Assembly: GCA_024404735.1 (NCBI GenBank)
Contig: JAKSPP010000001.1
Span: 1 to 35,069 of the forward strand
DNA length: 35,069 bases
Direction: 5' to 3'
Source of the DNA: Oscillospiraceae bacterium
GTDB taxonomy: Bacteria > Bacillota > Clostridia > Oscillospirales > Oscillospiraceae
The notes below the pieces were generated by a model, which was not told the DNA's origin, did no database searches, and saw only the letters and a list, made by a program, of their open reading frames with translations. Made by a program: the position numbers and the translations under genes. Below are positions 586 through 34,569 of this stretch, one piece after another (position 1 is the stretch's first letter; every line of letters begins with the position of its first letter).

Positions 586-2310
586 TTATTCAACATCCTG
601 AAGGGCGTCGAAGCCTTCTTCACCGGTTCTTACCTTGACGACATTCTCAACATCGTAAACGAATATCTTGCCGTCGCCGATATGGCCTGTGTAAAGCGTC
701 TTCTTTGCGGTTTCAATGACATCCCTGACGGGAATTGCGCTGACAACGATGTCAACCTGAACCTTGGGAAGGAGGTTCGTTTCAACGGCAACACCACGGT
801 AGTATTCGGGCTTGCCTCCCTGAACACCGCAGCCAAGAACGTGGCTTACGGTCATTCCGGTGATTCCGAGCTTCATCATTGCGTTCTTGAGAGAATCAAG
901 ACGGGCTTCCTTGCAGATGATTTCGACCTTTGTAAACTTGGGTCCTGTACCCTCTGCGAAGGTGGGGACTGCCTTGACGGGGATTGCCTCTGCGGGAGGT
1001 GTCTCACCGGTGACGGCAACAACCTCTTCACCGTAGGAGGTGAACTTGTCAACTGCGGGCATGAAGTCTGCATATGCAGAGGGAAGACCGTGCTCGGAAA
1101 TATCCAGACCGGTGATTTCCTCTTCAACTGTGCAGCGAAGACCGTGGATCTTCTTAATAAGAAGGAATACGATAATCATCATAATTGCGGCATATGCTGC
1201 AACGGTGACAAAGCCTAAAAGCTGAATTCCGAGAAGCTTGAAGGAGCCTGTGTAGAAGAGACCCTCAAGTCCTGCAGGAGCATCGGGGTTAGCGAAAAGG
1301 CCGACTGCGATTGTACCCCAGATACCGTTTGCACAGTGAACACCGACTGCACCGACGGGGTCGTCGATATGAAGCTTAAGGTCAAGAAGCTCAACAACCC
1401 AGACAACCAGGAAGCCGGAAACGAGACCGATTGCAGCTGCGCCGATTGCATCAACGGCATCGCAGGGAGCGGTAATTGCAACGAGTCCGGCGAGAGAAGC
1501 GTTCAGACACATTGAAACATCGGGCTTGCCGTTGCGAATCCAGGTGTAAATCATTGTAGTGCAGGTTGCAACAGCGGGAGCAATGGTGGTAGTAAGGAAG
1601 ATGGAGCTGAGCTCGGAAACGCTGGTTGCTGCGGCGCCGTTAAAGCCGTACCAGCCGAGCCAGAGAATGAATACGCCCAGTGCGCCGAGGGTAATGGAGT
1701 GGCCGGGAATAGCGTTTACCTTTGTGACCTTGCCGTCTTTATCCTTAATATACTTGCCGACGCGGGGTCCGAGAATAGTTGCACCAACAAGTGCTGCGAT
1801 ACCGCCTACCATATGAATTGCGGTGGAGCCTGCGTAATCGTGGAAGCCAATCTGAGAGAGCCAGCCGCCGCCCCAGATCCAGTGGGCCTCGATGGGGTAA
1901 ACGAAGAGGGAGATAACTGCGGAGTAGATGCAGTAGGAGGAGAACTTGGTTCTTTCAGCCATGGAGCCTGAAACGATGGTTGCGGTGGTTGCACAGAAAA
2001 CGAGGTTGAATACGAAGGTGGAGGCTCCGGTGAAGCTGCCGTCACCGGGGGAAGCGATAAAATCCTTGAAGCTTGCGAAAAGCTGCATGTTGGGCTTTCC
2101 GATGAGACCGAAGAGTGTATCCTCGCCCATCATAATGGTGTAGCCCAGGAGTGTGAAGACAACTGTTCCGATACAGAAGTCCATAAGGTTCTTCATTATA
2201 ATGTTACCGGCGTTCTTTGCTCTGGTAAAGCCTGTTTCAACCATTGCAAATCCGGCCTGCATCCAGAAAACAAGGGCAGCGCCTATTAAAAACCAAAATT
2301 CTACTGTCAT
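586..2310 (-). CDS. amtB: Ammonium transporter (Amt/MEP family) fused to a C-terminal PII (GlnK/GlnB-like) signal-transduction domain
   Basis: 574-aa ORF. The N-terminal ~410 aa are typical Amt (FWMQAGFAMVETG, multiple TM helices). The last ~118 aa (nt ~589-942) read KVEIICKEARLDSLKNAMMKLGITGMTVSHVLGCGVQGGKPEYYRGV..LPKVQVDIVV..GHIGDGKIFVYDVENVVKVRTGE, a full PII fold signature with T-loop and the GDGKIF B-loop. Confidence 0.9.
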   Translation of the reverse strand: MTVEFWFLIGAALVFWMQAGFAMVETGFTRAKNAGNIIMKNLMDFCIGTVVFTLLGYTIMMGEDTLFGLIGKPNMQLFASFKDFIASPGDGSFTGASTFVFNLVFCATTATIVSGSMAERTKFSSYCIYSAVISLFVYPIEAHWIWGGGWLSQIGFHDYAGSTAIHMVGGIAALVGATILGPRVGKYIKDKDGKVTKVNAIPGHSITLGALGVFILWLGWYGFNGAAATSVSELSSIFLTTTIAPAVATCTTMIYTWIRNGKPDVSMCLNASLAGLVAITAPCDAVDAIGAAAIGLVSGFLVVWVVELLDLKLHIDDPVGAVGVHCANGIWGTIAVGLFANPDAPAGLEGLFYTGSFKLLGIQLLGFVTVAAYAAIMMIIVFLLIKKIHGLRCTVEEEITGLDISEHGLPSAYADFMPAVDKFTSYGEEVVAVTGETPPAEAIPVKAVPTFAEGTGPKFTKVEIICKEARLDSLKNAMMKLGITGMTVSHVLGCGVQGGKPEYYRGVAVETNLLPKVQVDIVVSAIPVRDVIETAKKTLYTGHIGDGKIFVYDVENVVKVRTGEEGFDALQDVE

Positions 2311-2381: not shown

Positions 2382-4475
2382 TTACTTAACAGAGAAAAGC
2401 ATGTCTGCATAGGAGGGAACGGGCCAGTAGCCGACGGAGGTCATGACCTCTGCTTCATCGGTTGCCTTTCTGAGGGCCTGCATTGCGGGAATAACACGGT
2501 CAAGAATCATTCCGGCCTCTTCTGTTATGTTGGCTGCGGTTCCCAGGGCTGCAAGTGCTTCTTCAAGCTTCTCGGTTTCGCTGTCCATGGTGTCGAGAAG
2601 GGCAGAGAGCTTCTCAATGCGCTTTGTCTCGAAACGGGTGGATGCACCGGGTACGGCGGAGAGCTTTGCTGCCATAGAGGATGCAAGAGAACTGATATAC
2701 TCCTCAACAGCGTCGAGGTACATTGTCTTTTCCATGCTTATCATTGTGGAGGCTTCAATGGAAACTGTCTTGCAGTAGTTTTCCATCTGAATTTCGTAAC
2801 GGCTTAAAAGCTCGGACTCGGAGAATACCTTCTGTGCCATAAGCATATCCATATTCTTCTTATCAAGAAGCTTTGCCATTGCCTCGGGAGTTGTGCGGAG
2901 ATTTGAAAGACCTCTGGACTCGGCCTCGACAATCCAGGAATCGTCGTATCCGTTTCCGTTAAAGAGAATGCGCTTGTGCTCGCTTATTGTGCTCTTGATA
3001 AGGTCGTGCAGTGCAGAGCTGAAATCAGATGCCCCTTCAAGCTTTCCTGCAAACTCTTCGAGAACGGAGGCGACTGCTGCGTTCAGCATGATGTTTGCGC
3101 AGGCGATGGAGTTGGAGGAGCCGAGCATACGGAACTCGAACTTGTTTCCTGTAAATGCAAAGGGAGAAGTACGGTTGCGGTCTGTTGTATCAATGTTAAA
3201 GCGGGGAAGAACATCAACGCCCAGCTTCATGAGCTTGCGCTCAGTTCCGGCATAGGGCTTGTCCTCATCGATAGCTTCGAGAACAGCGGCCAGCTCGTCT
3301 CCGAGGAATATGGAAACAACGGCGGGAGGAGCTTCGTTTGCTCCGAGTCTGTGGTCGTTTCCGGCGGTTGCAACGGAGAGACGGAGAAGATCCTGATAAT
3401 CATCAACTGCCTTGATTACGGCAACGAGGAAGAGAAGGAACTGTGCATTCTCGTAGGGAGTCTCACCGGGGGAGAGAAGATTTATGCCGGTATCGGTTGC
3501 AATGGACCAGTTGTTGTGCTTTCCGCTTCCGTTAACGCCTGCAAAGGGCTTCTCGTGGAGAAGACATACAAGACCGTGCTTCTGTGCAACCTTCTGCATA
3601 AGCTCCATGGTGAGCTGGTTGTGGTCTGCGGCTATATTAGTGGTTGCGTAAATGGGGGCCAGCTCGTGCTGAGCGGGTGCAACCTCGTTATGCTCTGTCT
3701 TGGCCAGAATTCCCAGCTTCCAGAGCTCCTCGTTCAGCTCTTCCATAAAGGCTGCTATGCGGGGCTTGATTACTCCGAAGTAGTGGTCGTCCATTTCCTG
3801 ACCCTTGGGGGGCTTTGCTCCGAAAAGTGTTCTGCCGGTGTAGCAGAGGTCGGGGCGCTGCTCATACATTTCCTTTGTAATAAGGAAGTACTCCTGCTCG
3901 GGGCCGACGCTGGAGCGTACACATCTGACATCGTCTCTTCCGAAGAGCTTCAGAATGCGGATTGCCTGCTTGTTCAGGGCCTGCATGCTTCGGAGAAGGG
4001 GAGTCTTCTTGTCCAGAGCCTCACCGCCGTAGGAGCAGAAGGCTGTGGGAATGCAAAGGGTCTTGCCCTTGATGAATGCATAGCTTGTGGGGTCCCAGGC
4101 CGTGTAGCCTCTTGCCTCGAAGGTAGCACGAAGGCCGCCGGAGGGGAAGGAGGATGCATCGGGTTCGCCTCTTATCAGCTCCTTGCCGGAGAACTCCATT
4201 ATGACTCCGCCGTCGGGAGCGGGAGCAATGAAGCTGTCATGCTTTTCTGCGGTAACTCCGGTGAGAGGCTGGAACCAGTGTGTGAAGTGGGTTGCTCCCT
4301 TGGAAACCGCCCAGTCCTTCATGGCAGCAGCAACAGCGTCGGCAACATTCTTGTCCAGACGGGAGCCCTCGTCGATGGTCTTCTTAAGAGAATTGTAAAC
4401 ATCGGCCGAGAGATTTGCCTTCATAACTCTGTCATCAAATACATTACATCCAAAAAATTCGGGGACGGTCTTCAT
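2382..4475 (-). CDS. glnN: Glutamine synthetase, type III
   Basis: 697-aa ORF. The length and the N-terminal motif [24 protein letters not shown] are characteristic of GSIII (GlnN). The catalytic region contains NEVAPAQHE and [21 protein letters not shown] precedes the ATG at 4475. The gap to amt is 71 nt with no hairpin, so co-transcription is likely. Confidence 0.9.
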
Positions 4476-4507
4476 AATTAATTTCCTTCTTTCTTACCGC
4501 ATTTTAT

Positions 4508-4575
4508 TAAACGAAAAGGGCGCCTTCCACGCTCCGGCCTATGCTACGGCCAACGTGAAAGACGCCCTTGCCTTT
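4508..4575 (-). promoter_or_regulatory. glnN 5' leader: terminator-like hairpin 2 (distal), preceded by an AAGGCAAG motif
   Basis: Minus strand: AAGGCAAG-GGGCGTCTTTCACG..(inner GGCC/GGCC hairpin)..CGTGGAAGGCGCCC-TTTTCGTTT. The outer stem is 14 bp (2 G-U) followed by a U-rich tract. It lies between the glnN promoter and the RBS. Confidence 0.55.
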
Positions 4576-4611
4576 CGTTCTATGCGAATTTATTTTTTGT
4601 TTTTGAAAATC

Positions 4612-4657
4612 AAAAAAGCGCCTCCGAGAGTGACCCTCTCGAAGACGCCATTGCCTT
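4612..4657 (-). promoter_or_regulatory. glnN 5' leader: terminator-like hairpin 1 (promoter-proximal), preceded by an AAGGCAAT motif
   Basis: Minus strand: AAGGCAAT-GGCGTCTTCGAGAG-GGTCA-CTCTCGGAGGCGC-TTTTTTG. The stem is 13 bp (2 G-U) followed by U6. It starts within ~10-20 nt of the predicted TSS. Confidence 0.55.
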
Positions 4658-4667
4658 GATGTGTGGG

Positions 4668-4696
4668 ATGATACTACCGTAAGACGAATTTGTCAA
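4668..4696 (-). promoter_or_regulatory. SigA-type promoter of glnN
   Basis: Minus strand: TTGACA (4696-4691), a 17-nt spacer, then TATCAT (4673-4668). Confidence 0.6.
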
Positions 4697-4714
4697 GTAC
4701 TTTTTCAGAAAAAT
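4691..4714. promoter_or_regulatory. Candidate operator overlapping the glnN -35 (GlnR/TnrA-like and CodY-like palindromes)
   Basis: TGTCAAGTACTTTTTCA (4691-4707) differs at one position from TGTNAN7TNACA. The overlapping CTTTTTCAGAAAAAT (4700-4714) matches 12 of 15 positions of the CodY box AATTTTCWGAAAATT. Confidence 0.3.
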
Positions 4715-4742
4715 CCGAAATTAATTTTTTTATTTTGGGGGC

Positions 4743-4772
4743 TTGACAAAAAAACGGTTTTGGGTGTATAAA
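4743..4772 (+). promoter_or_regulatory. SigA-type promoter of the glutamate synthase operon
   Basis: TTGACA (4743-4748), an 18-nt spacer ending in TG, then TATAAA (4767-4772). Confidence 0.55.
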
Positions 4773-4787
4773 AAATGACAATATGAG

Positions 4788-4877
4788 CAAAGGCGTTCAT
4801 TTCGGATTGTCCTCCCGGCTGCGGGAGAAGGCAAAGGTCCGGGGTGAGCGCTTTTTCTTTTTATTTTTATCGTAACT
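4788..4877 (+). promoter_or_regulatory. Glutamate synthase operon 5' leader: long interrupted terminator-like hairpin
   Basis: GCAAAGGCGTTCA-T-TTCGGA-TTGTC-CTCCCG-GCTG-CGGGAG-AAGGCAAAGG-TCCGGG-G-TGAGCGC, followed by TTTTTCTTTTTATTTTT. There are three stacked helices (7, 6 and 6 bp) and a U-rich tract that runs up to the RBS. Confidence 0.5.
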
Positions 4878-4895
4878 ATGAAAGGATGGCAGTAG

Positions 4896-5990
4896 ATGAA
4901 GCTTGAAGGAGAAGTGCGTATCCCTTCGGGATGTGCAATAGCAGCGCTTATTTCAAAGGATGGAAAAAGGGTAAGCGGTGAAACAATAATAAAAGCCATG
5001 CTGCCGATGCACGATCGCTCCAATGGTCTGGGCGGAGGCTTTGCGGCATACGGAATCTACCCCGAATATAAGGAGTATTACGCTCTGCATATGTTTTTTG
5101 ACAGCAGAGATACAAGAAAAGCCTGCGAGGTTTTTCTTAAGGAGCGCTTTGAAATAGTCAAGTCCGAGCTCCTTCCCACAAGGAAAATCCCTCAGATAAC
5201 GGATGAGCCCATTATCTGGCGCTATTTTGTCGCACCTCTTAAGAGCGTGCTTGAGAGCATGCAGCTTGAAGAAAAAGAATATGTAATGCGTACCGTTATG
5301 AAGATAAACACGGAAATGAAGGGCGCATATGTTTTTTCAAGCGGCAAGAATATGGGAACCTTCAAGGCAGTCGGCTTCCCGGAGGATGTCGGAGTATTCT
5401 ACAGACTGGATGAATATGAGGGCTACTCCTGGACGGCACACGGAAGATATCCTACTAACACCCCCGGCTGGTGGGGCGGTGCTCATCCCTTTACATTGCT
5501 TGATTATTCAATAGTACACAACGGTGAAATATCCTCCTATGACGCAAACCGCCGTTTTATTGAAATGTTCGGATATAAATGCAATCTTCAGACGGATACA
5601 GAGGTCATTACATACATAATGGACTATCTGCTCAGAATTCAGGGACTTTCTCTGGAGGAAGCTTCAAGTGTTGTCGCCGCCCCCTTCTGGAGTGTTATCG
5701 AGAATATGCCGGAGAAGGAAAAGAATAAGCTCAAATATCTCCGCACGGTTTTTCCCTCCCTTCTGATAACAGGCCCCTTCTCGATTATCCTCGGCTTTGA
5801 AGGCGGACTTATGGCACTTAATGACAGACTCAAGCTCCGCAGTATGGTTGTCGGAGAAAAGGACGATAAGGTGTTTATCGCCAGTGAGGAGGCTGCAATC
5901 CGTATGATGGAGCCCGATGCCGAAAACATCTGGTCTCCCGATGGCGGTGAGCCCGTAATAATCCAGGTAAAGGATGGTGTCCAGCTGTGA
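4896..5990 (+). CDS. Glutamate synthase, class-II glutamine amidotransferase domain subunit (split/archaeal type)
   Basis: 364 aa. The sequence IPSG-CAIAALIS suggests a pro-peptide ahead of the Ntn catalytic Cys. It also contains HDRSNGLGGGFA and HNGEISSY motifs typical of the GltB amidotransferase domain. The stop overlaps the next gene (GTGA). Confidence 0.8.
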   Translation: MKLEGEVRIPSGCAIAALISKDGKRVSGETIIKAMLPMHDRSNGLGGGFAAYGIYPEYKEYYALHMFFDSRDTRKACEVFLKERFEIVKSELLPTRKIPQITDEPIIWRYFVAPLKSVLESMQLEEKEYVMRTVMKINTEMKGAYVFSSGKNMGTFKAVGFPEDVGVFYRLDEYEGYSWTAHGRYPTNTPGWWGGAHPFTLLDYSIVHNGEISSYDANRRFIEMFGYKCNLQTDTEVITYIMDYLLRIQGLSLEEASSVVAAPFWSVIENMPEKEKNKLKYLRTVFPSLLITGPFSIILGFEGGLMALNDRLKLRSMVVGEKDDKVFIASEEAAIRMMEPDAENIWSPDGGEPVIIQVKDGVQL

Positions 5991-7492
5991 GTGTAGATTT
6001 TATATACCCCGAATTTGAGGTTGTCCGTAATGAAAGCAGATGCATAGCCTGCAGAGTCTGTGAGAGACAGTGCTCAAATGAGGTTCATTATTATGATGAC
6101 GAAAGAGGCCTTATGGTTTCCGATGAGAGCAAGTGCGTTAACTGCCAGCGCTGTGTGTCTCTCTGTCCCACAAGAGCCCTTAAAATAAGGGAAAGTGACT
6201 GCACCTTCCGTAAAAATGCAAACTGGCAGGGTCAGACCATTAAGGAGATTTACAAGCAGGCCTCAACAGGCGGTGTCCTCCTTTCCTCAATGGGTAACCC
6301 CACTCCTCTGCCTGTATACTGGGATAAGATTTTAATCAATGCATCTCAGGTTACAAACCCGTCCATTGACCCTCTCCGTGAGCCTATGGAAACAAAGGTC
6401 TTCCTCGGAAAGAAGCCGAATATTATCGGAAAAAACGAAGACGGAAGCCTTAAGTGTGAGCTCCCTCCCCAGCTTGAGCTCAGCCTTCCCGTTATGTTCT
6501 CCGCTATGAGCTACGGCTCAATAAGCTATAACGCCCATGCCTCCCTTGCAAGAGCCGCAACTGCAATGGGCACATATTATAACACAGGTGAGGGCGGACT
6601 CCACGAGGACTTCTATGTTTACGGTCCCAACACAGTCGTTCAGGTTGCATCCGGTCGTTTCGGTGTCCATGAGGATTATCTCTCTGCAGGTGCCGCAATC
6701 GAAATCAAGATGGGTCAGGGCGCAAAGCCCGGCATAGGCGGACATCTTCCCGGTGCAAAAATCGTCGGAGATGTCTCCAGAACAAGAATGATTCCCGAGG
6801 GCTCCGATGCAATTTCTCCGGCTCCTCACCACGATATCTATTCAATTGAAGATCTGCGTCAGCTTGTTTTCTCTCTTAAGGAGGCAACGGCCTATTCAAA
6901 GCCTGTTATAGTTAAGGTTGCCGCAGTTCATAATATTGCCGCCATTGCCAGCGGTATTGCAAGGTCCGGTGCGGATATTATCGCAATAGATGGTTTCCGC
7001 GGAGGTACCGGTGCTGCACCCACCAGAATAAGGGATAACGTCGGTATCCCCATTGAGCTTGCTCTTGCCGCAGTCGATTCCCGCCTCCGTGAGGAAGGTA
7101 TCAGAAACAACGTTTCTCTTGTTGTGGGCGGCTCAATCAGAAGTGCCTCCGATGTTGTTAAGGCCGTAGCTCTCGGTGCGGATGCCTGCTATATTGCAAC
7201 TGCAGCCGTTCTTGCCCTTGGCTGTCATCTTTGCAGAACCTGTCAGACGGGTAAGTGCAACTGGGGTATTGCAACCCAGCGCCCCGATCTTGTTAAGCGC
7301 CTGAATCCCGATATAGGCTCCGAGAGACTCATTAATCTTCTCACAGCCTGGCAGCACGAGATAAAGGAGCTTATGGGCGGTATGGGCATCAATTCCATTG
7401 AAGCCCTCAGAGGCAACCGCCTGATGCTCAGAGGCGTTGGCCTTAATGAGAAAGAACTGGAAATTCTCGGAATTTCCTATGCGGGAGAGTGA
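5987..7492 (+). CDS. Glutamate synthase FMN-binding (GltB central/synthase) domain subunit with an N-terminal 2x[4Fe-4S] ferredoxin module
   Basis: 501 aa. Two CxxCxxCxxxCP-type motifs sit at the N-terminus (CIACRVCERQC, CVNCQRCVSLCP). These are followed by LPVMFSAMSYGSIS, IKMGQGAKPGIGGHLPG and DGFRGGTGAAP, all GltS FMN-domain signatures. Confidence 0.85.
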   Translation: MSVDFIYPEFEVVRNESRCIACRVCERQCSNEVHYYDDERGLMVSDESKCVNCQRCVSLCPTRALKIRESDCTFRKNANWQGQTIKEIYKQASTGGVLLSSMGNPTPLPVYWDKILINASQVTNPSIDPLREPMETKVFLGKKPNIIGKNEDGSLKCELPPQLELSLPVMFSAMSYGSISYNAHASLARAATAMGTYYNTGEGGLHEDFYVYGPNTVVQVASGRFGVHEDYLSAGAAIEIKMGQGAKPGIGGHLPGAKIVGDVSRTRMIPEGSDAISPAPHHDIYSIEDLRQLVFSLKEATAYSKPVIVKVAAVHNIAAIASGIARSGADIIAIDGFRGGTGAAPTRIRDNVGIPIELALAAVDSRLREEGIRNNVSLVVGGSIRSASDVVKAVALGADACYIATAAVLALGCHLCRTCQTGKCNWGIATQRPDLVKRLNPDIGSERLINLLTAWQHEIKELMGGMGINSIEALRGNRLMLRGVGLNEKELEILGISYAGE

Positions 7493-7498
7493 TGAATT

Positions 7499-7927
7499 AT
7501 GAAGCGAGTATACGTTAAAGAAGAATGGTGCCTTGGCTGTCATCTCTGTGAATATAACTGTGCCTTTGCCAATTCCGGAAAAAGAGATATGTCCTCGGCC
7601 CTAAAGGGAAAACCCATATTCCCCCGTATTCATATCGAATCCGATGATAAAATAACCTATGCGGTTTCCTGCCGTCATTGTGAAGATCCCATGTGCATTA
7701 AAAGCTGTATTGCGGGTGCTATATCCAAAAAGGACGGAAGAGTCTGCATTGACAGAAGCAAGTGCGTGGGCTGTCTTACCTGCGTAATGGTCTGCCCCTA
7801 TGGCGCTCTTGCCCCCGGTGAAAACGGCACTATGCAGAAGTGTGAGCTGTGCCTTGAAAATTCCTGCGGTGCTCCGGCCTGTGTTACGGGCTGCCCCAAC
7901 AGGGCAATTGTATACGAAGAGAGGTGA
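7499..7927 (+). CDS. 4Fe-4S dicluster ferredoxin-like protein
   Basis: 142 aa with four Cys clusters (CLGCHLCEYNC, CRHCEDPMC, CVGCLTCVMVCP, CELC..C..CP). Confidence 0.75.
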   Translation: MKRVYVKEEWCLGCHLCEYNCAFANSGKRDMSSALKGKPIFPRIHIESDDKITYAVSCRHCEDPMCIKSCIAGAISKKDGRVCIDRSKCVGCLTCVMVCPYGALAPGENGTMQKCELCLENSCGAPACVTGCPNRAIVYEER

Positions 7928-9171
7928 GAGGCTTGAAGCATTATGTCATAATCGGAAACGGTATTGCCGCTGTAGGCTGTATCGAAGGCATTCGTAGTAA
8001 GGATGCCGTAAATCCCATTACAGTTGTATCCTCCGAGCCCTTCCCGGCCTACGGCCGTCCTCTTATATCCTACTATCTGGCAGGAAAAACAAATATCAAG
8101 AAGATGATTTACAGGCCCGAGGATTTTTATGAGAGCAACGGCGTTAAGGTTCTTTACGGCAAAAGCGCAAAGAGCTTTGACCCCGCAGCAAAAACCGTTC
8201 TCCTTTCGGACGGTGAAGAGCTTTCCTATTCCGAGCTCCTTATTGCAACAGGCTCCGTTCCCTTTGTTCCCAGATTTCAGGGCATTGAAACCGTAAAAAA
8301 CAAGTCCTGCTTTATGACAATTGAGGACAGCCTTTCTGTTGAAGAGAGCCTTTCTCCCGAGGCTAAGGTCCTTATAATAGGCGCCGGCTTTATCGGTCTA
8401 AAGTGTGCCGAAGGAATAAAGGGCAGGGCAAAGAGCATAATGGTTGCCGACCTTGCAGGACATATTCTTCCCAGCATCCTTGATGATGACAGTGCTCCCT
8501 ATATGGAGAAGATTCTCACTGATAACGAAATCGAGCTTCTTCTGGGCGATACCGCCCTCCGTTTTGACGGCAACAGAGCATATATGCAGAGCGGAAAGGT
8601 AATCGATTTTGATTATCTTGTTCTTGCAGTGGGTGTAAGACCCGCAGCAACACTGTTTTCCGAGGCAGGCGGTGCAATGGGTAAGGGAATAACCATTAAT
8701 GAAAAAGGGGAAACCTCCCTTCCCTCTGTCTATGCTGCCGGTGACTGTACCGAAAGTATGGATATTTCCTGCGGAGAAATCTCCGTAACCGCAAACCTCC
8801 CCTCCGCTTATATGCAGGGCCGCACCGCAGGTGTTAATATGGCAGGCGGAATAGAGTGCTATGACAAGGGAATAAAAATGAATTCCATTGGTTTCTTCGG
8901 CCTCCATGTTATTTCCGCAGGCACAAGGACCGATGAAACCCTTGTATATGAAGCAAAGAGCGATTCTTCCCTTAAGAAGCTCTATGCAAAGGACGGAGTA
9001 CTGACGGGCTATATGCTGGTCGGAGATGTTGAGAGAGCAGGTGTATATACTGCCCTTATCAGAAACAGAACGCCTCTTGATTCCTTTGATTTTGAAAAAA
9101 TGAAGCAAATTCCCTCCCTCGCTCCCTTTGGCAGTGAGGCAAGAAGAAATATGCTCGGAGGTGTGGTGTGA
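7924..9171 (+). CDS. FAD/NAD(P)-dependent pyridine nucleotide-disulfide-type oxidoreductase (probable electron-input subunit)
   Basis: 415 aa. It has an N-terminal VIIGNGIAAVG dinucleotide fold, a second Rossmann motif VLIIGAGFIGLKCAE, and AAGDC. The start could be GTG 7924 (overlap) or TTG 7933. Confidence 0.75.
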   Translation: MRGLKHYVIIGNGIAAVGCIEGIRSKDAVNPITVVSSEPFPAYGRPLISYYLAGKTNIKKMIYRPEDFYESNGVKVLYGKSAKSFDPAAKTVLLSDGEELSYSELLIATGSVPFVPRFQGIETVKNKSCFMTIEDSLSVEESLSPEAKVLIIGAGFIGLKCAEGIKGRAKSIMVADLAGHILPSILDDDSAPYMEKILTDNEIELLLGDTALRFDGNRAYMQSGKVIDFDYLVLAVGVRPAATLFSEAGGAMGKGITINEKGETSLPSVYAAGDCTESMDISCGEISVTANLPSAYMQGRTAGVNMAGGIECYDKGIKMNSIGFFGLHVISAGTRTDETLVYEAKSDSSLKKLYAKDGVLTGYMLVGDVERAGVYTALIRNRTPLDSFDFEKMKQIPSLAPFGSEARRNMLGGVV

Positions 9172-9893
9172 TGCTGCGTGATGCTAAGTGTATGGATTAT
9201 TCAAGGCTTAATGCCATTGTAAGAGAAGCCGGCGAAGACGTTGTGCTTAAAAATGTCTGCGGCCAGCGCTTCATAGGTGCAGGACTTTCGGGAAGAAAAA
9301 TCGAAATTGACGGGGTCCCCGGCAATGCACTTGGCGCTTATCTTAACGGTGCGGAGATAACCGTTAACGGCAATGCACAGGATGCCGTGGGCGATACAAT
9401 GAATGACGGCGAAATCGTAATAAACGGAAGCATCGGCGATGCCGCAGGCTACGCAATGAGAGGCGGCGCCATGTACGTCAGAGGCGGCGCAGGCTACAGG
9501 GCCGGCATTCATATGAAGGAGTATAAGGAGAAGGTTCCCGCTCTTATCATAGGTGGCTGTGCGGGCAGCTTTCTCGGCGAGTATCAGGCAGGCGGTATTA
9601 TTGCCGTACTCGGTCTTGATAAAAAGGATGACACTCCTCTTATCGGCAACTTCCCCTGCACGGGAATGCACGGCGGAAAGCTTTATTTAAGAGGAAGCAT
9701 CGAAGGACTGCATTTTCCCAATCAGGTTAATGTAAAGAAGGCAGATGCAGAGGATATGGAAAAGCTTCTCCCTTATCTTTCGCGCTTTGCCTCTGTTTTC
9801 GGCATTTCTCTTGATAGTCTTAAGAATGATGAATATACCGTTGTAACTCCCGATAACGCAAACCCCTATAAGCAGCTTTATGCCGCAAACTGA
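9168..9893 (+). CDS. Glutamate synthase GXGXG-repeat (GltB C-terminal) domain subunit
   Basis: 241 aa with repeated beta-helix motifs (GQRFIGAGL, EIDGVPGNALGAY, VNGNAQDAVGDTM, INGSIGDAAGYAMRGG, VRGGAGYRAG). The start overlaps the upstream stop. Confidence 0.8.
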   Translation: MMLRDAKCMDYSRLNAIVREAGEDVVLKNVCGQRFIGAGLSGRKIEIDGVPGNALGAYLNGAEITVNGNAQDAVGDTMNDGEIVINGSIGDAAGYAMRGGAMYVRGGAGYRAGIHMKEYKEKVPALIIGGCAGSFLGEYQAGGIIAVLGLDKKDDTPLIGNFPCTGMHGGKLYLRGSIEGLHFPNQVNVKKADAEDMEKLLPYLSRFASVFGISLDSLKNDEYTVVTPDNANPYKQLYAAN

Positions 9894-10425: not shown

Positions 10426-10467
10426 AAATGCACTCCGATTACGGCTTTCGCCCATCGGAGTGCATTT
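10426..10467 (-). terminator. Terminator hairpin at the end of the opp operon
   Basis: AAATGCACTCCGAT (10426-10439) pairs perfectly with ATCGGAGTGCATTT (10454-10467), giving a 14-bp stem. Flanks are A/T-rich. It sits directly after the small ORF stop at 10475. Confidence 0.6.
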
Positions 10468-10474
10468 ATATTTA

Positions 10475-10735
10475 TCATGTTAAAAGACATATTGCAGCGA
10501 TGACAAGACCGATGCCGACTATAAAAACAAGTCCTATAAGCATTGCCGCAGCCATTGCGCCCAGCATGGCTCCTCTCTGTCCCTCCGGGCTTATTTCAAA
10601 GCCCTTTCTATCCTCGCTTTTCCCCGGAAATATTTTCCTTCGGCCGGTTTCGGGAGAACGGGCTTCGGGTGAGGAGAACATACTCATATCCGCAATGCTG
10701 TGTCCGTCATCATCGTCGTATTTTTTTCGTGCCAT
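10475..10735 (-). CDS. Small (86 aa) C-terminally anchored membrane protein, hypothetical
   Basis: The internal ATG at 10735 lies 4 nt after the oppF stop: MARKKYDDDDGHSIADMSMF..GAMLGAMAAAMLIGLVFIVGIGLVIAAICLLT. It lies upstream of the operon terminator. The longer 141-aa track ORF overlaps oppF out of frame. The RBS is weak. Confidence 0.4.
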   Translation of the reverse strand: MARKKYDDDDGHSIADMSMFSSPEARSPETGRRKIFPGKSEDRKGFEISPEGQRGAMLGAMAAAMLIGLVFIVGIGLVIAAICLLT

Positions 10736-10739
10736 GGCT

Positions 10740-11756
10740 TTATTTATCGTAAAGATGGCATACAACGTAATGTCCGGGCTCAACCTCTCTCTGTACGGGA
10801 GCCTCCTGCTTGCAGCGCTCTGTGCATCTTGCACAGCGTGTGTGGAACTTGCAGCCCTTGGGGGGATTTGCGGGGGAGGGGATGGAGCCCTCAAGGACAA
10901 TTCTGTTCATCTTTGCAGTGGGGTCGGGTACGGGAATGGCGGAGAAAAGAGCCTCTGTGTAGGGGTGAAGAGGATTATTGAAGATATCCTCGGTTGCGCC
11001 GTACTCAACAAGATTTCCAAGATACATAACGCCGACGGTATCGGAGATATGCTCAACAACGGAAAGGTCGTGGGAGATGAAGAGGTAGGTGAGGCTGTGC
11101 TTCTCCTTAAGTTCGTTGAGGAGGTTAATAATCTGTGCCTGAATGGAAACATCCAGTGCGGAAACAGGCTCGTCACATACGATGAATTCGGGATTAAGGG
11201 CAAGGGCTCTTGCAATGCAGATTCTCTGTCTCTGTCCGCCGGAGAACTCGTGGGGATAACGGTTTTTGTGGAAGGACTGCAGTCCGCAGTTGTCCATAAC
11301 CTCGTCAATATAGTCATTGTACTCGTTTGCGGGTACGATGTTATGTTCTCTTACAGCCTCGCCGATGATTTCGCCGACATGAAGTCTGGGTGAAAGGGAG
11401 GAGAAGGGGTCCTGGAAAATAATCTGCATTTTGGGGCGCAGGGCTCTCATTTCCTTTGCAGAGAGGTCATAAACATCTTTTCCGTTAAAGAGAACCTGAC
11501 CGCTTGTTTTCTCGCCTGCAAGGCGGAGAATGGTTCTTCCTGTGGTGGTCTTGCCGCAGCCGGATTCACCAACAAGGCCCATTGTTGTTCCACGCTTCAG
11601 GTTGAAGGTAACTCCGTCAACGGCCTTGACATGTCCGACGGTCTTTCCGAAAAAGCCACCCTTAATGGGGAAATACTTCTTCAGGGAATTTACCTGAAGA
11701 ACATACTGAGGGTCATAGCTTACGGGAGTGAAATCGTCCTTGATTACTTCGCTCAT
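10740..11756 (-). CDS. oppF: Oligopeptide/dipeptide ABC transporter ATP-binding protein (OppF type)
   Basis: 338 aa with Walker [10 protein letters not shown], signature FSGGQRQR and Walker [13 protein letters not shown]. The C-terminal Cys-containing oligopeptide-transporter tail is present. Confidence 0.9.
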
Positions 11757-12929: not shown

Positions 12930-14492
12930 TCAGCGCTTCATCTTGGGGTCGAAGGCATCGCGGAGACCGTCGCCGACAAGGTTGAAGGCGAGAACGGTTG
13001 CAAGAAGGAGAACGCCTGCGGGAATCCAGATGAACCAGTATGTTGTAAGAACAAAGGTGTTGTTAACGTCATTTATTATGTTACCCCAGGATGCGAAGGG
13101 GAACTTGATTCCGAGACCGAGGAAGCTGAGGGTTGCCTCGGTGATGATTGTTCCGCCGACACCCATGGTGAAGGAAACAATAAGCTGAGGAATAACATTG
13201 GGAACAAGATGCTTGAAAATTCGGGAGCTTACCTTAAGACCGGAGGACTCCGTTGCCGTCATAAACTCCTGCTCACGGAGGGAGAGAATCTGACCTCTGA
13301 CCATTCTCGCAATTCCAGGCCAGCCGAGGATTCCGAGGATGAGCATAAGGTAAATCATTCTGATTTTCGGGTCAACTCTCATTGCATCCATGGCAGCGCC
13401 GAGAATGATGATGATAGGTGTGGAGGGTATGCAGTAGAAAATATCGACTATTCTCATTACGAGGTTGTCAACCCATTTTCCGAAGTAGCCTGCAATACCG
13501 CCGAGGATAACACCGATAAGAGTTGCAATAACTTCGACGATAAATCCGATAAGAAGTGAAACTCTTCCGCCGTACATAAGACGGGTAAGCATATCCATTC
13601 CGTTTCGGTCGGTTCCCAGCCAGTGGGCCTTGCTGGGAGAAGCATAGGTATCGTAAATACGGGATTCTGTCTGCTGCTTTACTGACCAGTTCTTGGTTGC
13701 GGGGTTATAGGAAACGGTGTATTCATGCTGTACGCCGTCGGTATCCGTGAAGTAAAAATCATCGTTGCCCGCATCAAGGGACTCTGCCAGCTCCTCCTTG
13801 AAGGCACGGGTAATAAATACGTCGGCCATTACGCTGCTGACGACATAACGGCTTATATAAGCAATTTCGTTATCGCCCTCGAAAACAACTCCGCCGTCGG
13901 AAATTGTGTACTGCTTTCCGTCGGCCTCGAAGCTGTCCGCTCCTGTGGAGTGAGCCTTAAGTGCGTTGTACTTGAGGGAGAAGGGAATATCCGCACCCTC
14001 AATACTTGAGGAGACGATATCCTTGTATGCAATGCCTATCATTGTTCCGTCCTCAAGAGATACGGAATAAAAATCCTCGCCCTCTGTTGTAATGCTGTAG
14101 TCAACCTTCTTGAAGCTGAAGGTGTCCTTGCCCTTCTGAAGGGCCATTACAAGCTGAGCCTGAATGACGGTGTCGAAGCTCTGCCCGTCTGCTACTGCAT
14201 AACGGAGCTCCTCGTTCTTTACAACACCGGCATATTCCTTGTTAAGGTACTCGTAGCGGTAGAAAAGCTGATTCTCTTTATAGGGGGAGATAAGTCCTCC
14301 GATAAAGGAGAAGACGAACATAAAAACGAGAATTACAAGGCCGACAAGGGCTATTCTGTTTCTGAAGAAACGCTTGGCAACAAGTGCGCCGGGAGAAAGG
14401 GTCTTAACACGGCGGTCATCGTTAAGGGAAAGCTCCTCGTTTTCAGCCTCTGCAGAGGTGTTTTCTCTGATTTCATTTGAATTATTGCTCAT
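12930..14492 (-). CDS. oppC: Oligopeptide ABC transporter permease (OppC type) with a large extracytoplasmic insertion
   Basis: 520 aa. TM1 is followed by ~210 extra residues and then the canonical HWLGTDRNGMDMLTRL motif and a BPD-transporter core. Confidence 0.85.
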   Translation of the reverse strand: MSNNSNEIRENTSAEAENEELSLNDDRRVKTLSPGALVAKRFFRNRIALVGLVILVFMFVFSFIGGLISPYKENQLFYRYEYLNKEYAGVVKNEELRYAVADGQSFDTVIQAQLVMALQKGKDTFSFKKVDYSITTEGEDFYSVSLEDGTMIGIAYKDIVSSSIEGADIPFSLKYNALKAHSTGADSFEADGKQYTISDGGVVFEGDNEIAYISRYVVSSVMADVFITRAFKEELAESLDAGNDDFYFTDTDGVQHEYTVSYNPATKNWSVKQQTESRIYDTYASPSKAHWLGTDRNGMDMLTRLMYGGRVSLLIGFIVEVIATLIGVILGGIAGYFGKWVDNLVMRIVDIFYCIPSTPIIIILGAAMDAMRVDPKIRMIYLMLILGILGWPGIARMVRGQILSLREQEFMTATESSGLKVSSRIFKHLVPNVIPQLIVSFTMGVGGTIITEATLSFLGLGIKFPFASWGNIINDVNNTFVLTTYWFIWIPAGVLLLATVLAFNLVGDGLRDAFDPKMKR

Positions 14493-21116: not shown

Positions 21117-21145
21117 TTGACAAAGCTTCTTTAATCTGTTATCTT
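21117..21145 (+). promoter_or_regulatory. Promoter of rplJ-rplL
   Basis: TTGACA (21117-21122), a 17-nt spacer ending in TGT, then TATCTT (21140-21145), which gives an extended -10. Confidence 0.55.
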
Positions 21146-21151
21146 ATCTGA

Positions 21152-21316
21152 GCGCTCTGAAGACAGCAGGTGGCCCTAAAGGCCGTAAGTCCTGCCGAGG
21201 AAGGCTTCGTAAATTCCATTGCGGAACTTAAAGTTGCTTTTTTACTGTCTTCGTGCTTAGGCTGCACGGAGGCTTTTCTTTTCTGTGGGCGTGACAAATA
21301 TCCCGGAGGTGAAACA
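21152..21316 (+). promoter_or_regulatory. Structured rplJ 5' leader (L10-leader-type autoregulatory RNA, probable)
   Basis: A ~165-nt UTR. GAAGACAG (21159-21166) makes a long-range pairing with CTGTCTTC (21245-21252). Nested helices are GCAGG/CCTGC around a GGCC..GGCC hairpin. A CGTGC..GCACG hairpin is followed by a T-rich run ahead of the GGAGGTG RBS. Confidence 0.55.
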
Positions 21317-21838
21317 ATGCCTAACCAGAAAGTTCTCAGCGAGAAACAGGCAATAGTCGCCGCTCTTACCGAGCGTATCAAGAATGCTTCTTCCGGTGTT
21401 TTCGTAGACTACAAGGGAATCAACGTTGCTCAGGATAACGAGCTCCGTAACGAGCTCCGTGATAACGGTGTTGAGTATTCCGTAGTTAAGAACACACTCA
21501 CAAGATTCGCAGTCAAGGATTGCGGTCTCGAGGCTCTTGATCCCGTTCTCAACGGCACTACCTCTCTCGCAACCAGCGCTGGCGATCCCATCGCACCCTT
21601 CCGCGTAATCACAGGTTATGCAAAGAAGCTTGACGGTATCTTCACCATCAAGGCTGCTTTCATGGACGGAAAGATTCTTTCCGAGCAGGAAGTTGCAGAA
21701 ATTTCCGCACTTCCTTCCAAGGACGCTCTTTACAGCCAGGTATTCGGAACACTCCTTGCTCCCATTACCTCTCTTGCAGTCGTTCTCAACCAGATTTGCG
21801 AGCAGAAGGGCGGCGCACCCGCTCCCGCAGCAGAATAA
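21317..21838 (+). CDS. rplJ: 50S ribosomal protein L10
   Basis: The start is reset to the ATG at 21317, after a GGAGGTG RBS: MPNQKVLSEKQAIVAALTERIKNASSGVFVDYKGINVAQDNELRNELR..VVKNTL. Confidence 0.9.
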   Translation: MPNQKVLSEKQAIVAALTERIKNASSGVFVDYKGINVAQDNELRNELRDNGVEYSVVKNTLTRFAVKDCGLEALDPVLNGTTSLATSAGDPIAPFRVITGYAKKLDGIFTIKAAFMDGKILSEQEVAEISALPSKDALYSQVFGTLLAPITSLAVVLNQICEQKGGAPAPAAE

Positions 21839-21885
21839 TTTATTCTGCGTAAGTATCTATCTAAATTATTTGGAGGAATTTAATT

Positions 21886-22260
21886 ATGGCAAGCGAAAAA
21901 GTAAATGCTCTTATTGAAGAAGTAAAGGCTCTCACCGTTCTCGAGCTTTCCGAGCTCGTACACGCTCTTGAGGAGGCTTTCGGTGTATCCGCTGCTGCTG
22001 CTGTTGCAGCTGCTCCTGTAGCCGGCGAAGCTGCTGCTGCTGAGGAGAAGACCGAGTTCGATGTCGTTATGACCGACTTCGGCGCAGAGAAGATCAAGGT
22101 TATCAAGGAAGTTCGTGGCATCACCGGCCTCGGCCTCGCAGAGGCAAAGGCAAAGGTCGAGACCGTTCCCGCAGTTATCAAGGAAGCCTGCTCCAAGGAA
22201 GAGGCCGAGGAGATCAAGGGCAAGCTCGAGGCTGTTGGCGCAAAGGTCGAGCTCAAGTAA
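21886..22260 (+). CDS. rplL: 50S ribosomal protein L7/L12
   Basis: 124 aa: [23 protein letters not shown], an Ala-rich hinge, then [31 protein letters not shown]. Confidence 0.95.
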
Positions 22261-32880: not shown

Positions 32881-34569
32881 ATGAAAAAAGCATTATCCGT
32901 ACTGCTTGTTCTTGTGATGCTCCTTTCTCTGTGTGCCTGCGGCTCCGGTTCCAATGGCTCATCTGCCAAGGGCTCAAATGACAGCGATGATGAAAACCTC
33001 GGCGTTTATGAAATTAAAAAGGCTGTCAAGGGTGAAATATCCGTTGATGTTGATGACCTTTTTGAAGACGGTTTTACCATTGAGCTCAAGGCCAAGGGCA
33101 AGTGCAAGATGAACATCGACGGTCAGGAAGGCAAGGGCGAATGGGAGCTTAACGGAAAGAAAATCGAGATTTCCGGCAGCGGAGTTGAGTTCTCCGGTAC
33201 TCTCAAGAAGGGTATCATGACTCTCACCGACATTGAAGATTCCGGTATTGACATCATCCTTGTTCTTGATGGCGTTGACTATGAGGACGAAGACGCCCCC
33301 GCAAAGAAGGATGATAAGGACGGCAAGGATAAGGGCGAGACCCCTGCTGTTGCCGAGGAATCTATCGAGGGCACCTACGTCTTTACAGCTCTCGGCGAGG
33401 ATTACGAAGGCGTTCTTACACCTGATGCCATGGAGGAATTATTCGGTTCCGACGATTATGTCGATGCACGCATTGTTCTGAACAGTGACGGTACCGGTAC
33501 ATTCTCATTCGATGGCGAAGATGCCGATCTTGAATGGGATGAGACCAGCATTATTGTCGATGACGACCCCGCAGAATATGAAGTCAGAGGCAATGACCTC
33601 ATCCTTACCATCGATGATATGTTCATGGTATTCACCAAAGAAGGCAAGAAGAGCAAGCTTGATCTCATTGCTTACTTTGATGAGCTTGGCTACACATGGG
33701 ATGAGGATATTTATGAGTTTGTTGTAAATGGAGTTTCTCCCTTCACAGGAAGCAACACCAATCCCTCTTCCGGCACAACAACCGAAGGTCCCGCAGTTAC
33801 TTTCCAGGAGTATGTTGTTGTTGACAATGACAAGTGCACCGTCAAGATTACAGGCTTCGATCCCGCAGCAGGCTACTCCGGAAATCAAGTTGAGGTCAAG
33901 GTATATCTTGAGAACAAGACCTCCGATATGACTCTCAGATTCTCCACAGACTACTCCGCACTGAATGGTGTCAGCTCTTACTCCTCTCTTTACGAAGACG
34001 TTACCGCAGGCAAGAAAGCCAATGCAACTATTTCCTTCTGGGATACCGATGTCCTTCGTGAGAACGGAATGGACCTTTTCACCATCGTTGAAATCGGCCT
34101 CCGCGTCAGAGAAGCCGATAATTACAGCGCCGATCCTATTTTCGTCGGAAGCGCAACAATTTATCCCTATGGTGAGTCTGCCGCAAAGAAGTTTGAGAGA
34201 ATTCCCAATGCAAACGACCTTCTTCTCATTGACGAGGCCGGTTATTCCGTAACCATTCTCGACTTTGTCGAAAACGACTGGGGCGACATGGCCCTCGGTG
34301 TTTATGTTGAGAACAACACAGACAAAACACTCTATTTCACTACCGATAATGACGCACTTAACGGCTATATGGTAGATCCTTACTGGGGAGTTGAGGTAGC
34401 ACCCGGCCTGTCTGCATTCTCCGAAATCAGCTTTGATGAGGATGACCTTGCAGAGCTTAATATTAATTCCTACGCCGATATTGAAGAGTATGAGGCCACA
34501 TGGCGCATTATTGACGACAATACATGGACAGACCTTTACAAGGATGTCTGGACAATTACCTTCTCCTGA
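32881..34569 (+). CDS. Lipoprotein of unknown function with two pairs of internally duplicated domains
   Basis: 562 aa with a GGAGGAAA RBS and lipobox MLLSLCAC. The duplicated C-terminal modules align as VKVYLENKTSDMTLRFSTDYSALNG versus LGVYVENNTDKTLYFTTDNDALNG. Confidence 0.75.
   Translation: MKKALSVLLVLVMLLSLCACGSGSNGSSAKGSNDSDDENLGVYEIKKAVKGEISVDVDDLFEDGFTIELKAKGKCKMNIDGQEGKGEWELNGKKIEISGSGVEFSGTLKKGIMTLTDIEDSGIDIILVLDGVDYEDEDAPAKKDDKDGKDKGETPAVAEESIEGTYVFTALGEDYEGVLTPDAMEELFGSDDYVDARIVLNSDGTGTFSFDGEDADLEWDETSIIVDDDPAEYEVRGNDLILTIDDMFMVFTKEGKKSKLDLIAYFDELGYTWDEDIYEFVVNGVSPFTGSNTNPSSGTTTEGPAVTFQEYVVVDNDKCTVKITGFDPAAGYSGNQVEVKVYLENKTSDMTLRFSTDYSALNGVSSYSSLYEDVTAGKKANATISFWDTDVLRENGMDLFTIVEIGLRVREADNYSADPIFVGSATIYPYGESAAKKFERIPNANDLLLIDEAGYSVTILDFVENDWGDMALGVYVENNTDKTLYFTTDNDALNGYMVDPYWGVEVAPGLSAFSEISFDEDDLAELNINSYADIEEYEATWRIIDDNTWTDLYKDVWTITFS

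Follow-up and report, generated by a model that had tools for sequence, protein, structure and literature searches.

Probable ANTAR-type antiterminator/terminator modules in an Oscillospiraceae bacterium, two in series in the glnN leader and a third in the divergent glutamate synthase leader

The glnN leader of an Oscillospiraceae bacterium probably holds two antiterminator/terminator modules in succession, both of ANTAR (NitR/GnfR) type, and the leader of the divergent glutamate synthase (GOGAT) operon a third. The elements were found in a stretch of 35,069 nucleotides, referred to below as the window, and we would file them as GnfR/NitR-like ANTAR antiterminators with a single-hexaloop layout, not as textbook dual-hexaloop targets. 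We infer the existence of an ANTAR protein in this genome, its binding to the hairpins and nitrogen limitation as the signal.

The minus strand carries every feature of the glnN leader, including the promoter, the hairpins and the terminators. The genes, the promoter and the two terminators are as follows:

2382–4475, minus strand: glnN, encoding a type III glutamine synthetase (GSIII) of 697 aa, with the Pfam domains GSIII_N, Gln-synt_C and Gln-synt_C-ter
586–2310, minus strand: amt-PII, an ammonium transporter–PII fusion of 574 aa in a single ORF, with the Pfam domains Ammonium_transp and P-II
4668–4696, minus strand: sigma-70-type promoter of the glnN-amt/PII operon, with TTGACA at 4696–4691, a 17 nt spacer and TATCAT at 4673–4668 (11 of 12 matches)
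4607–4649, minus strand: intrinsic terminator 1, with a stem at 4649–4618 and the U tract UUUUUUGAUUU from 4617 (−24.6 kcal/mol, z −5.8)
4509–4567, minus strand: intrinsic terminator 2, with a long bulged stem at 4567–4518 followed by UUUUCGUUU at 4517–4509 (−37 kcal/mol, z −6.4)

The preliminary description of this DNA had placed two tandem terminator-like hairpins, sharing a near-identical 16-mer, between a near-consensus promoter and the RBS of glnN. The promoter match and the fold energies given above confirm this arrangement, and both copies of the 16-mer were recovered on the minus strand, namely AAGGCAATGGCGTCTT at 4657–4642 and AAGGCAAGGGCGTCTT at 4574–4559. Terminator 1 was found by the terminator scan; terminator 2 was missed by the simple scan owing to the bulge in its stem, and it is visible in both folds. 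The fold of the whole glnN leader has a z of −8.0 against shuffles, and both terminators open with AAGGCAAnGGCGTCTT. The repeated motif exceeds chance in the window, where AAGGCAANGG occurs 35 times at ≤1 mismatch against 10.6 expected. The 71-nt spacer between glnN and amt-PII was searched for a terminator, a hairpin or the motif and none was found, so the two genes are probably co-transcribed. The same amt-PII fusion lies 3′ of glnN, or behind a hexaloop–terminator leader of its own, in loci L019, L058 and L074.

The 16-mer is a hairpin in itself, a small hexaloop RNA hairpin with a 5-bp stem (AAGGC/GUCUU) and the hexaloop AAnGGC, in which loop position 1 is A and position 4 is G. The glnN leader holds two of these putative antiterminators and no other A..G.. 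hexaloop hairpin:

4642–4657, minus strand: predicted antiterminator hairpin 1, AAGGC-AAUGGC-GUCUU, a 5-bp stem with a hexaloop, 10 nt 3′ of the −10 box (−2.6 kcal/mol alone; covariance model score 24.4 bits)
4557–4576, minus strand: predicted antiterminator hairpin 2, GAAAGGC-AAGGGC-GUCUUUC, a 7-bp stem with a hexaloop (−6.4 kcal/mol; 23.6 bits)

The start-to-start distance of the two hairpins is 81 nt, with a full terminator in between. The terminator 5′ arm starts with bases that also belong to the small hairpin, namely GGC from the end of the loop and GUCUU from the 3′ arm, and the 5′ arm of terminator 2 likewise takes in bases of both the loop and the 3′ arm of its hairpin; because of these shared bases, the small hairpin and the terminator are mutually exclusive. 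In the minimum-energy fold of both modules, the 3′ half of the loop and the 3′ arm lie in the terminator stem abutting the U tract, and since they make up the 5′ arm of the terminator, the small hairpin is predicted to act as an antiterminator. The terminators (−24.6 and −37 kcal/mol) are far more stable than the hairpins (−2.6 and −6.4 kcal/mol), which supports termination as the predicted default state of both modules, and with hairpins so weak and terminators so strong, a protein would be needed to favour the hairpin. The same energies lend support to the earlier proposal that expression of glnN and amt-PII would need regulated antitermination. When the 16–20 nt were held as the hairpin, the leftover stem in the fold stopped 7–9 nt short of the U tract. 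An intrinsic terminator needs its stem close to the U tract, and a gap of 7–9 nt is too far.

A third copy of the hairpin was located in the divergent GOGAT leader, which makes the GOGAT operon the second regulated unit of the window under the proposed reading. Its features, all on the plus strand, are as follows:

4743–4772, plus strand: divergent promoter of the GOGAT operon, with TTGACA at 4743–4748, 18 nt and TATAAA at 4767–4772, read from the sequence and not reported by the promoter scan
4783–4800, plus strand: predicted antiterminator hairpin 3 of the GOGAT leader, AUGAGC-AAAGGC-GUUCAU, 10 nt 3′ of the −10 box (−4.3 kcal/mol; 20.1 bits)
4793–4862, plus strand: intrinsic terminator 3, with a stem at 4793–4851 and a U tract at 4852–4862 (−36 kcal/mol), overlapping hairpin 3
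4896–9893, plus strand: five-gene split glutamate synthase operon, with the Pfam domains GATase_2, Glu_synthase, Fer4, Pyr_redox_2 and GXGXG

A hairpin covariance model was seeded solely with glnN-leader hairpins, including window copies 1 and 2. Its top two matches in the window were these two seed members, and the third-best was hairpin 3, which is not in the seed (E = 0.0015). The fourth match, at 13043–13068 on the plus strand (15.4 bits, E 0.037), lies antisense in an oligopeptide permease gene and is probably a chance match. The sequence of hairpin 3 is also present ahead of the GOGAT GATase gene in L005, L007, L009, L011, L015, L051, L052, L060 and L069.

For comparison, we collected 80 loci encoding GSIII proteins 62–75% identical to that of the window. 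Nearly all of them come from Clostridia metagenome-assembled genomes, many of Oscillospiraceae or Ruminococcaceae, with a small number of isolates, among them Pseudoflavonifractor phocaeensis (L012, which carries the loop variant GACGGC). A search for the core CAANGGYG within 350 nt upstream of glnN, run without a stem filter, returned 43 cores from 35 of the 80 related loci and the window. At the four positions flanking the closing C-G, pairing was observed in 41, 40, 39 and 29 of the 43 cores, and it fell to chance level farther out. In the alignment of these cores, 89% of stem cells were paired against 28–56% for slid-partner controls, and the covariation score was 0.53 against 0.07–0.16 for slid partners, with none of 500 shuffles attaining the observed values. 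The stem types differ on both sides, with AAGGC/GUCUU, ACAGC/GCUGU, GCGGC/GUCGC, UAGC/GCUA and AAGC/GCUU all being present, and G-U pairs are frequent (20 of 43 at one position), which argues for RNA, and not DNA, as the conserved element. The motif is also strand-specific: in every case it reads in the sense direction of the gene that follows. Among the 80 GSIII loci, then, the hairpin is a recurrent element ahead of glnN and shows clear covariation.

The layout of the module was also conserved. In a crude fold test, 28 of the 43 instances had the 3′ half of the loop paired, together with the 3′ arm, into a terminator stem abutting a U run; this figure is an undercount, since internal U runs confuse the test. 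A near-consensus promoter ends 7–14 nt ahead of the stem in 27 of 36 related leaders, from which it follows that the hairpin starts within a few bases of the transcript 5′ end, about 2–6 nt past the predicted transcription start. Tandem modules like those of the window lie ahead of glnN in L001, L006, L007, L009 and L040; in L061, they precede asnB and pyrG. With the pattern GCAA.GG[CT], the motif was found in 33 of the 80 loci, and the true motif-bearing fraction is higher, because in at least 10 others the hairpin upstream of glnN has a variant loop, for example AUUGGC, GACGGC or AAUGAC. The variant-loop loci, where the hairpin lies at most some 120 nt ahead of the glnN start, are L003, L004, L012, L013, L022, L036, L041–L043 and L065, and the variants seen were GAUGAC, AUUGGC, GACGGC, AAUGAC, AAUGGA, AAUGGG, AAGGGG and AAAGAU, with G4 constant throughout. 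Elsewhere among the loci, glnN lacks a separate leader, and the upstream gene (probably pyrG, asnB or asnA) ends just ahead of it.

The hairpin is not confined to glnN. A total of 113 hairpin matches were obtained in 1.41 Mb of fetched sequence, against 32 in the reversed sequence, and control loop patterns not overlapping the motif gave 3–52 matches in the same 1.41 Mb. The hairpin followed by a U run was detected ahead of glnN, split GOGAT, large gltB, amt-PII and GSI-like glnA-ANTAR genes, and also ahead of pyrG, asnB, asnA, guaA, carA, nadE and purA; nearly all of the genes preceded by it encode ammonia- or glutamine-consuming enzymes. This distribution points to a broad regulon of ammonia- and glutamine-consuming enzymes that the hairpin may mark in the relatives. 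Sites of asnB, pyrG, guaA, carA, gltB, nadE, asnA and purA are located in L061 (216–275 and 7408–7474), L009 (15691) and L014 (4978, 10867 and 15566), with more sites of the same gene set in L050 (1759–1772 and 9737–9750), L051 (8832), L062 (8882) and L067 (9707–9722).

Concerning the regulator, a Pfam scan of the 28 long ORFs revealed no ANTAR or other RNA-binding regulator gene within the 35-kb window. Two ORFs of the window, both on the plus strand, have no Pfam match at all (10428–11393, 321 aa, and 32881–34569, 562 aa). Among the relatives, an ANTAR protein of 178–207 aa is encoded within 10 kb of glnN in 16 loci. Four of these 16 proteins were checked against Pfam and gave ANTAR matches with E values of 1e-14 to 1e-17, with a weak receiver-domain match in one, and the closest solved structure to a linked ANTAR protein was the ANTAR regulator Rv1626 (E 1.6e-16), with AmiR and EutV matching too. 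In 12 of the 16 loci, the ANTAR gene lies directly 3′ of a GSI-like gene (399–485 aa as called, mostly about 400), and the pair often closes the divergent GOGAT operon. The pairs of a GSI-like gene and a gene for an ANTAR protein of about 195 aa are located as follows:

L007, 2805–4635: GSI-like and ANTAR pair
L010, 6747–8576: GSI-like and ANTAR pair
L012, 7815–9923: GSI-like and ANTAR pair
L003, L009, L013, L016, L022, L026, L049, L069 and L075: GSI-like and ANTAR pair in each

Most of the linked ANTAR proteins have no Asp at the phospho-acceptor position, where Asn is the commonest residue. All twelve paired proteins have a receiver-like N-terminal region without Asp at this position, the residue being Asn in 10 of the 12, so that in sequence the linked ANTAR proteins look like pseudo-receivers. 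AmiR is itself a pseudo-receiver ANTAR protein. The conserved GSI-like/ANTAR pair suggests control by a partner protein instead of phosphorylation.

Among the closest known counterparts of the window motif is the target of GnfR, the ANTAR response regulator of the GnfK/GnfR system of Geobacter sulfurreducens, which in its phosphorylated form (GnfR~P) binds RNA carrying CAGGCAAGGGCGCC in vitro (Ueki and Lovley 2010, PMC2995071). The GnfR site CAGGCAANGGCGCC, which overlaps the terminators of the nifH, nifEN and glnK-amtB leaders in Geobacter (PMC2995071), is nearly identical to AAGGCAA(U/G)GGCGUC of the window. Window copies 1 and 2 each match it at 11 of the 13 specified positions; of the two mismatches, one replaces a G-C pair by G-U. 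Although its authors described the site as a sequence motif and not as a hairpin (PMC2995071), our fold of the GnfR-bound 48-nt nifH RNA of that study shows a lone hexaloop hairpin of the A1/G4 kind, GGC-AAGGGC-GCC, whose loop is also that of window hairpin 2. In the window, as in the Geobacter leaders, the sequence precedes an intrinsic terminator, with which it overlaps, and the genes behind these leaders are nitrogen genes, amt and PII genes among them. However, GnfR is a true phosphorylated response regulator acting with sigma-54 promoters in a deltaproteobacterium, whereas the window promoters are of the sigma-70 type, the ANTAR proteins of the relatives mostly have no phospho-acceptor Asp, and the window stem is longer and contains G-U pairs.

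A second counterpart is found within the Clostridia. According to the accounts given in PMC6316151 and PMC4676874, which cite Stutz et al. 2007, the ANTAR protein NitR is encoded 3′ of glnA in Clostridium saccharobutylicum and reportedly switches on GS/GOGAT genes when nitrogen is limiting. As far as these accounts go, the window and its relatives share with this system the class Clostridia, control of GS/GOGAT genes (there the glnA-nitR-gltAB cluster) by an ANTAR antiterminator, proposed in the case of the window, and the order of glnA followed by an ANTAR gene, as in 12 of the 16 ANTAR-carrying related loci; the likeness concerns the genes, and the window target differs in being GSIII (glnN) with amt-PII and a split, archaeal-type GOGAT.

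Ramesh et al. (2012, PMC3369931) require of an ANTAR target two short A1/G4 hexaloop hairpins, the second overlapping a terminator; among their predicted sites are some that precede genes for GS, GOGAT, amt and PII, both in Clostridia and elsewhere among bacteria. Later work showed ANTAR dimers to engage hexaloops singly, and redefined the minimal binding site as a single hexaloop; antitermination by EutV still requires two closely spaced hairpins, and a longer linker abolishes it (Walshe et al. 2022, PMC8934654). The window hairpins, with the loops AAUGGC, AAGGGC and AAAGGC on stems of 5–7 bp, agree with the ANTAR hairpin definition (a stem of at least 3 bp and an A1/G4 hexaloop), and each overlaps and excludes an intrinsic terminator. 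They share with the dual-hexaloop targets of EutV, NasR and AmiR the short stem, the A1/G4 hexaloop, the mutual exclusion with a terminator, the association with nitrogen metabolism and the presence of several regulated terminators per locus. They depart from these targets in having a single hexaloop hairpin for each terminator, without the P1 recruitment hairpin and hence with no P1/P2 pair with a short linker anywhere in the window, in the position of the hairpin at the extreme 5′ end of the transcript, and in a loop that is far more constrained (AAnGGY closed by C-G, against the rule ANNGNN).

This layout is repeated in the relatives. In the 45 nt upstream of the motif, another A..G.. hexaloop hairpin was present in 5 of the 43 instances against 4.9 expected, and one downstream in 11 against 4.5 expected, with no consistent position. 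There is no room for P1, because the −10 box ends 7–14 nt ahead of the stem. The comparison suggests that ANTAR targets of the nitrogen class as a rule carry a single, 5′-terminal hexaloop hairpin. The preliminary description was literally right in seeing no ANTAR dual-hexaloop pattern, as there is one hexaloop per terminator, but this led it to dismiss the right family. Its further statement that no characterised nitrogen-control mechanism matches the motif was mistaken: the A1/G4 hexaloop is the ANTAR recognition signature (PMC3369931), the motif is nearly identical to the GnfR site over the nif, glnK and amtB terminators (PMC2995071), ANTAR genes lie near glnN in 16 related loci, and NitR control of GS/GOGAT in Clostridium, so far as PMC6316151 and PMC4676874 relate it, is a further instance of such a mechanism.

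Other explanations of the leaders were weighed against ANTAR control. A metabolite-sensing riboswitch, for instance one for glutamine or 2-oxoglutarate acting without a protein, would suit the regulated genes, which are those of nitrogen assimilation, and glutamine riboswitches are known elsewhere. We nevertheless regard it as extremely unlikely: only a hairpin of about 16 nt, a few bases from the predicted 5′ end, is conserved together with a variable terminator, which is too little for a ligand pocket, and a free hairpin of −2.6 to −6.4 kcal/mol cannot outcompete the terminators. Rfam also gave no riboswitch family. At the gathering score, the whole window has no match but an unrelated L10 leader, and at E≤10 the region 4400–4900 has no T-box, glutamine riboswitch (glnA RNA, Downstream-peptide) or ANTAR-target family, a result that supports the earlier statement that no T-box or glutamine riboswitch is present. 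The lack of an ANTAR-target match in the window or the leader, in turn, tells against the ANTAR assignment. Weak matches of the leader (mir-281, trpB motif and others) were far below thresholds and reflect only generic hairpins. The L10 leader itself is a ribosomal protein leader (RF00557, 57.5 bits) at 21139–21288 on the plus strand, upstream of rplJ-rplL at 21170–22260. It is likewise very improbable that the 16-mer is the DNA operator of a repressor, or that the leader consists of unregulated, leaky attenuators whose shared sequence stems from duplication. The motif does sit just downstream of the promoter, a frequent operator location, and the two modules could be a tandem duplication, but a DNA element is at odds with stem covariation that includes G-U pairs and is strand-specific and with a second copy about 95 nt from the promoter, and neither form of this explanation fits the fusion of the motif to a terminator before many unlinked nitrogen genes in different genomes.

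A protein-dependent antiterminator whose protein is not of the ANTAR family, such as a PII-family or GSI-like protein acting directly on RNA, is unlikely, albeit with several observations in its favour, since no ANTAR gene was found in the window, canonical ANTAR targets have two hexaloops where these modules have a single hairpin, and a GSI-like gene accompanies the ANTAR gene in the relatives (directly 5′ in 12 of 16 loci). Against it, the loop obeys the ANTAR A1/G4 rule and the same sequence is bound by GnfR (PMC2995071), 16 of the related loci have an ANTAR gene linked to glnN, and no other RNA-binding family is consistently linked to glnN.

Under ANTAR-type antitermination, each module would by default terminate transcription through its far more stable long terminator hairpin. 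Upon nitrogen limitation, an ANTAR-domain protein encoded outside the window would bind the hexaloop hairpin (AAnGGC, closed by C-G) while the transcript 5′ end is emerging. The bound hairpin would lock away the GGC and GUCUU needed as the terminator 5′ arm, the leftover stem would end 7–9 nt ahead of the U tract, and the polymerase would read into the glnN-amt/PII and GOGAT genes. With two such modules one behind the other, the off-state would be multiplied and the response made sharper.

More tentatively, and as a reading that we consider possible rather than probable, the AAnGGY hairpins may constitute a separate subclass of ANTAR targets, in which one hexaloop at the 5′ end suffices without P1. 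The pseudo-receiver ANTAR regulator would be controlled by a partner, for which the GSI-like protein encoded upstream is a candidate as a glutamine/nitrogen sensor, comparable with AmiC-AmiR or GS-TnrA, and the switch would govern a broad regulon in gut and rumen Clostridia.

The mechanism is already known, and the window provides a new example of a known nitrogen-control switch. The motif, comprising the stem, the AAnGGY loop and the terminator, is simple enough for automatic annotation. The relatives add comparative evidence that ANTAR control can use single hexaloop hairpins, which bears on the debate on the minimal ANTAR target. For this group of uncultured Clostridia, the proposed modules offer an account of how GSIII, the amt-PII fusion and glutamate synthase may be switched on jointly.
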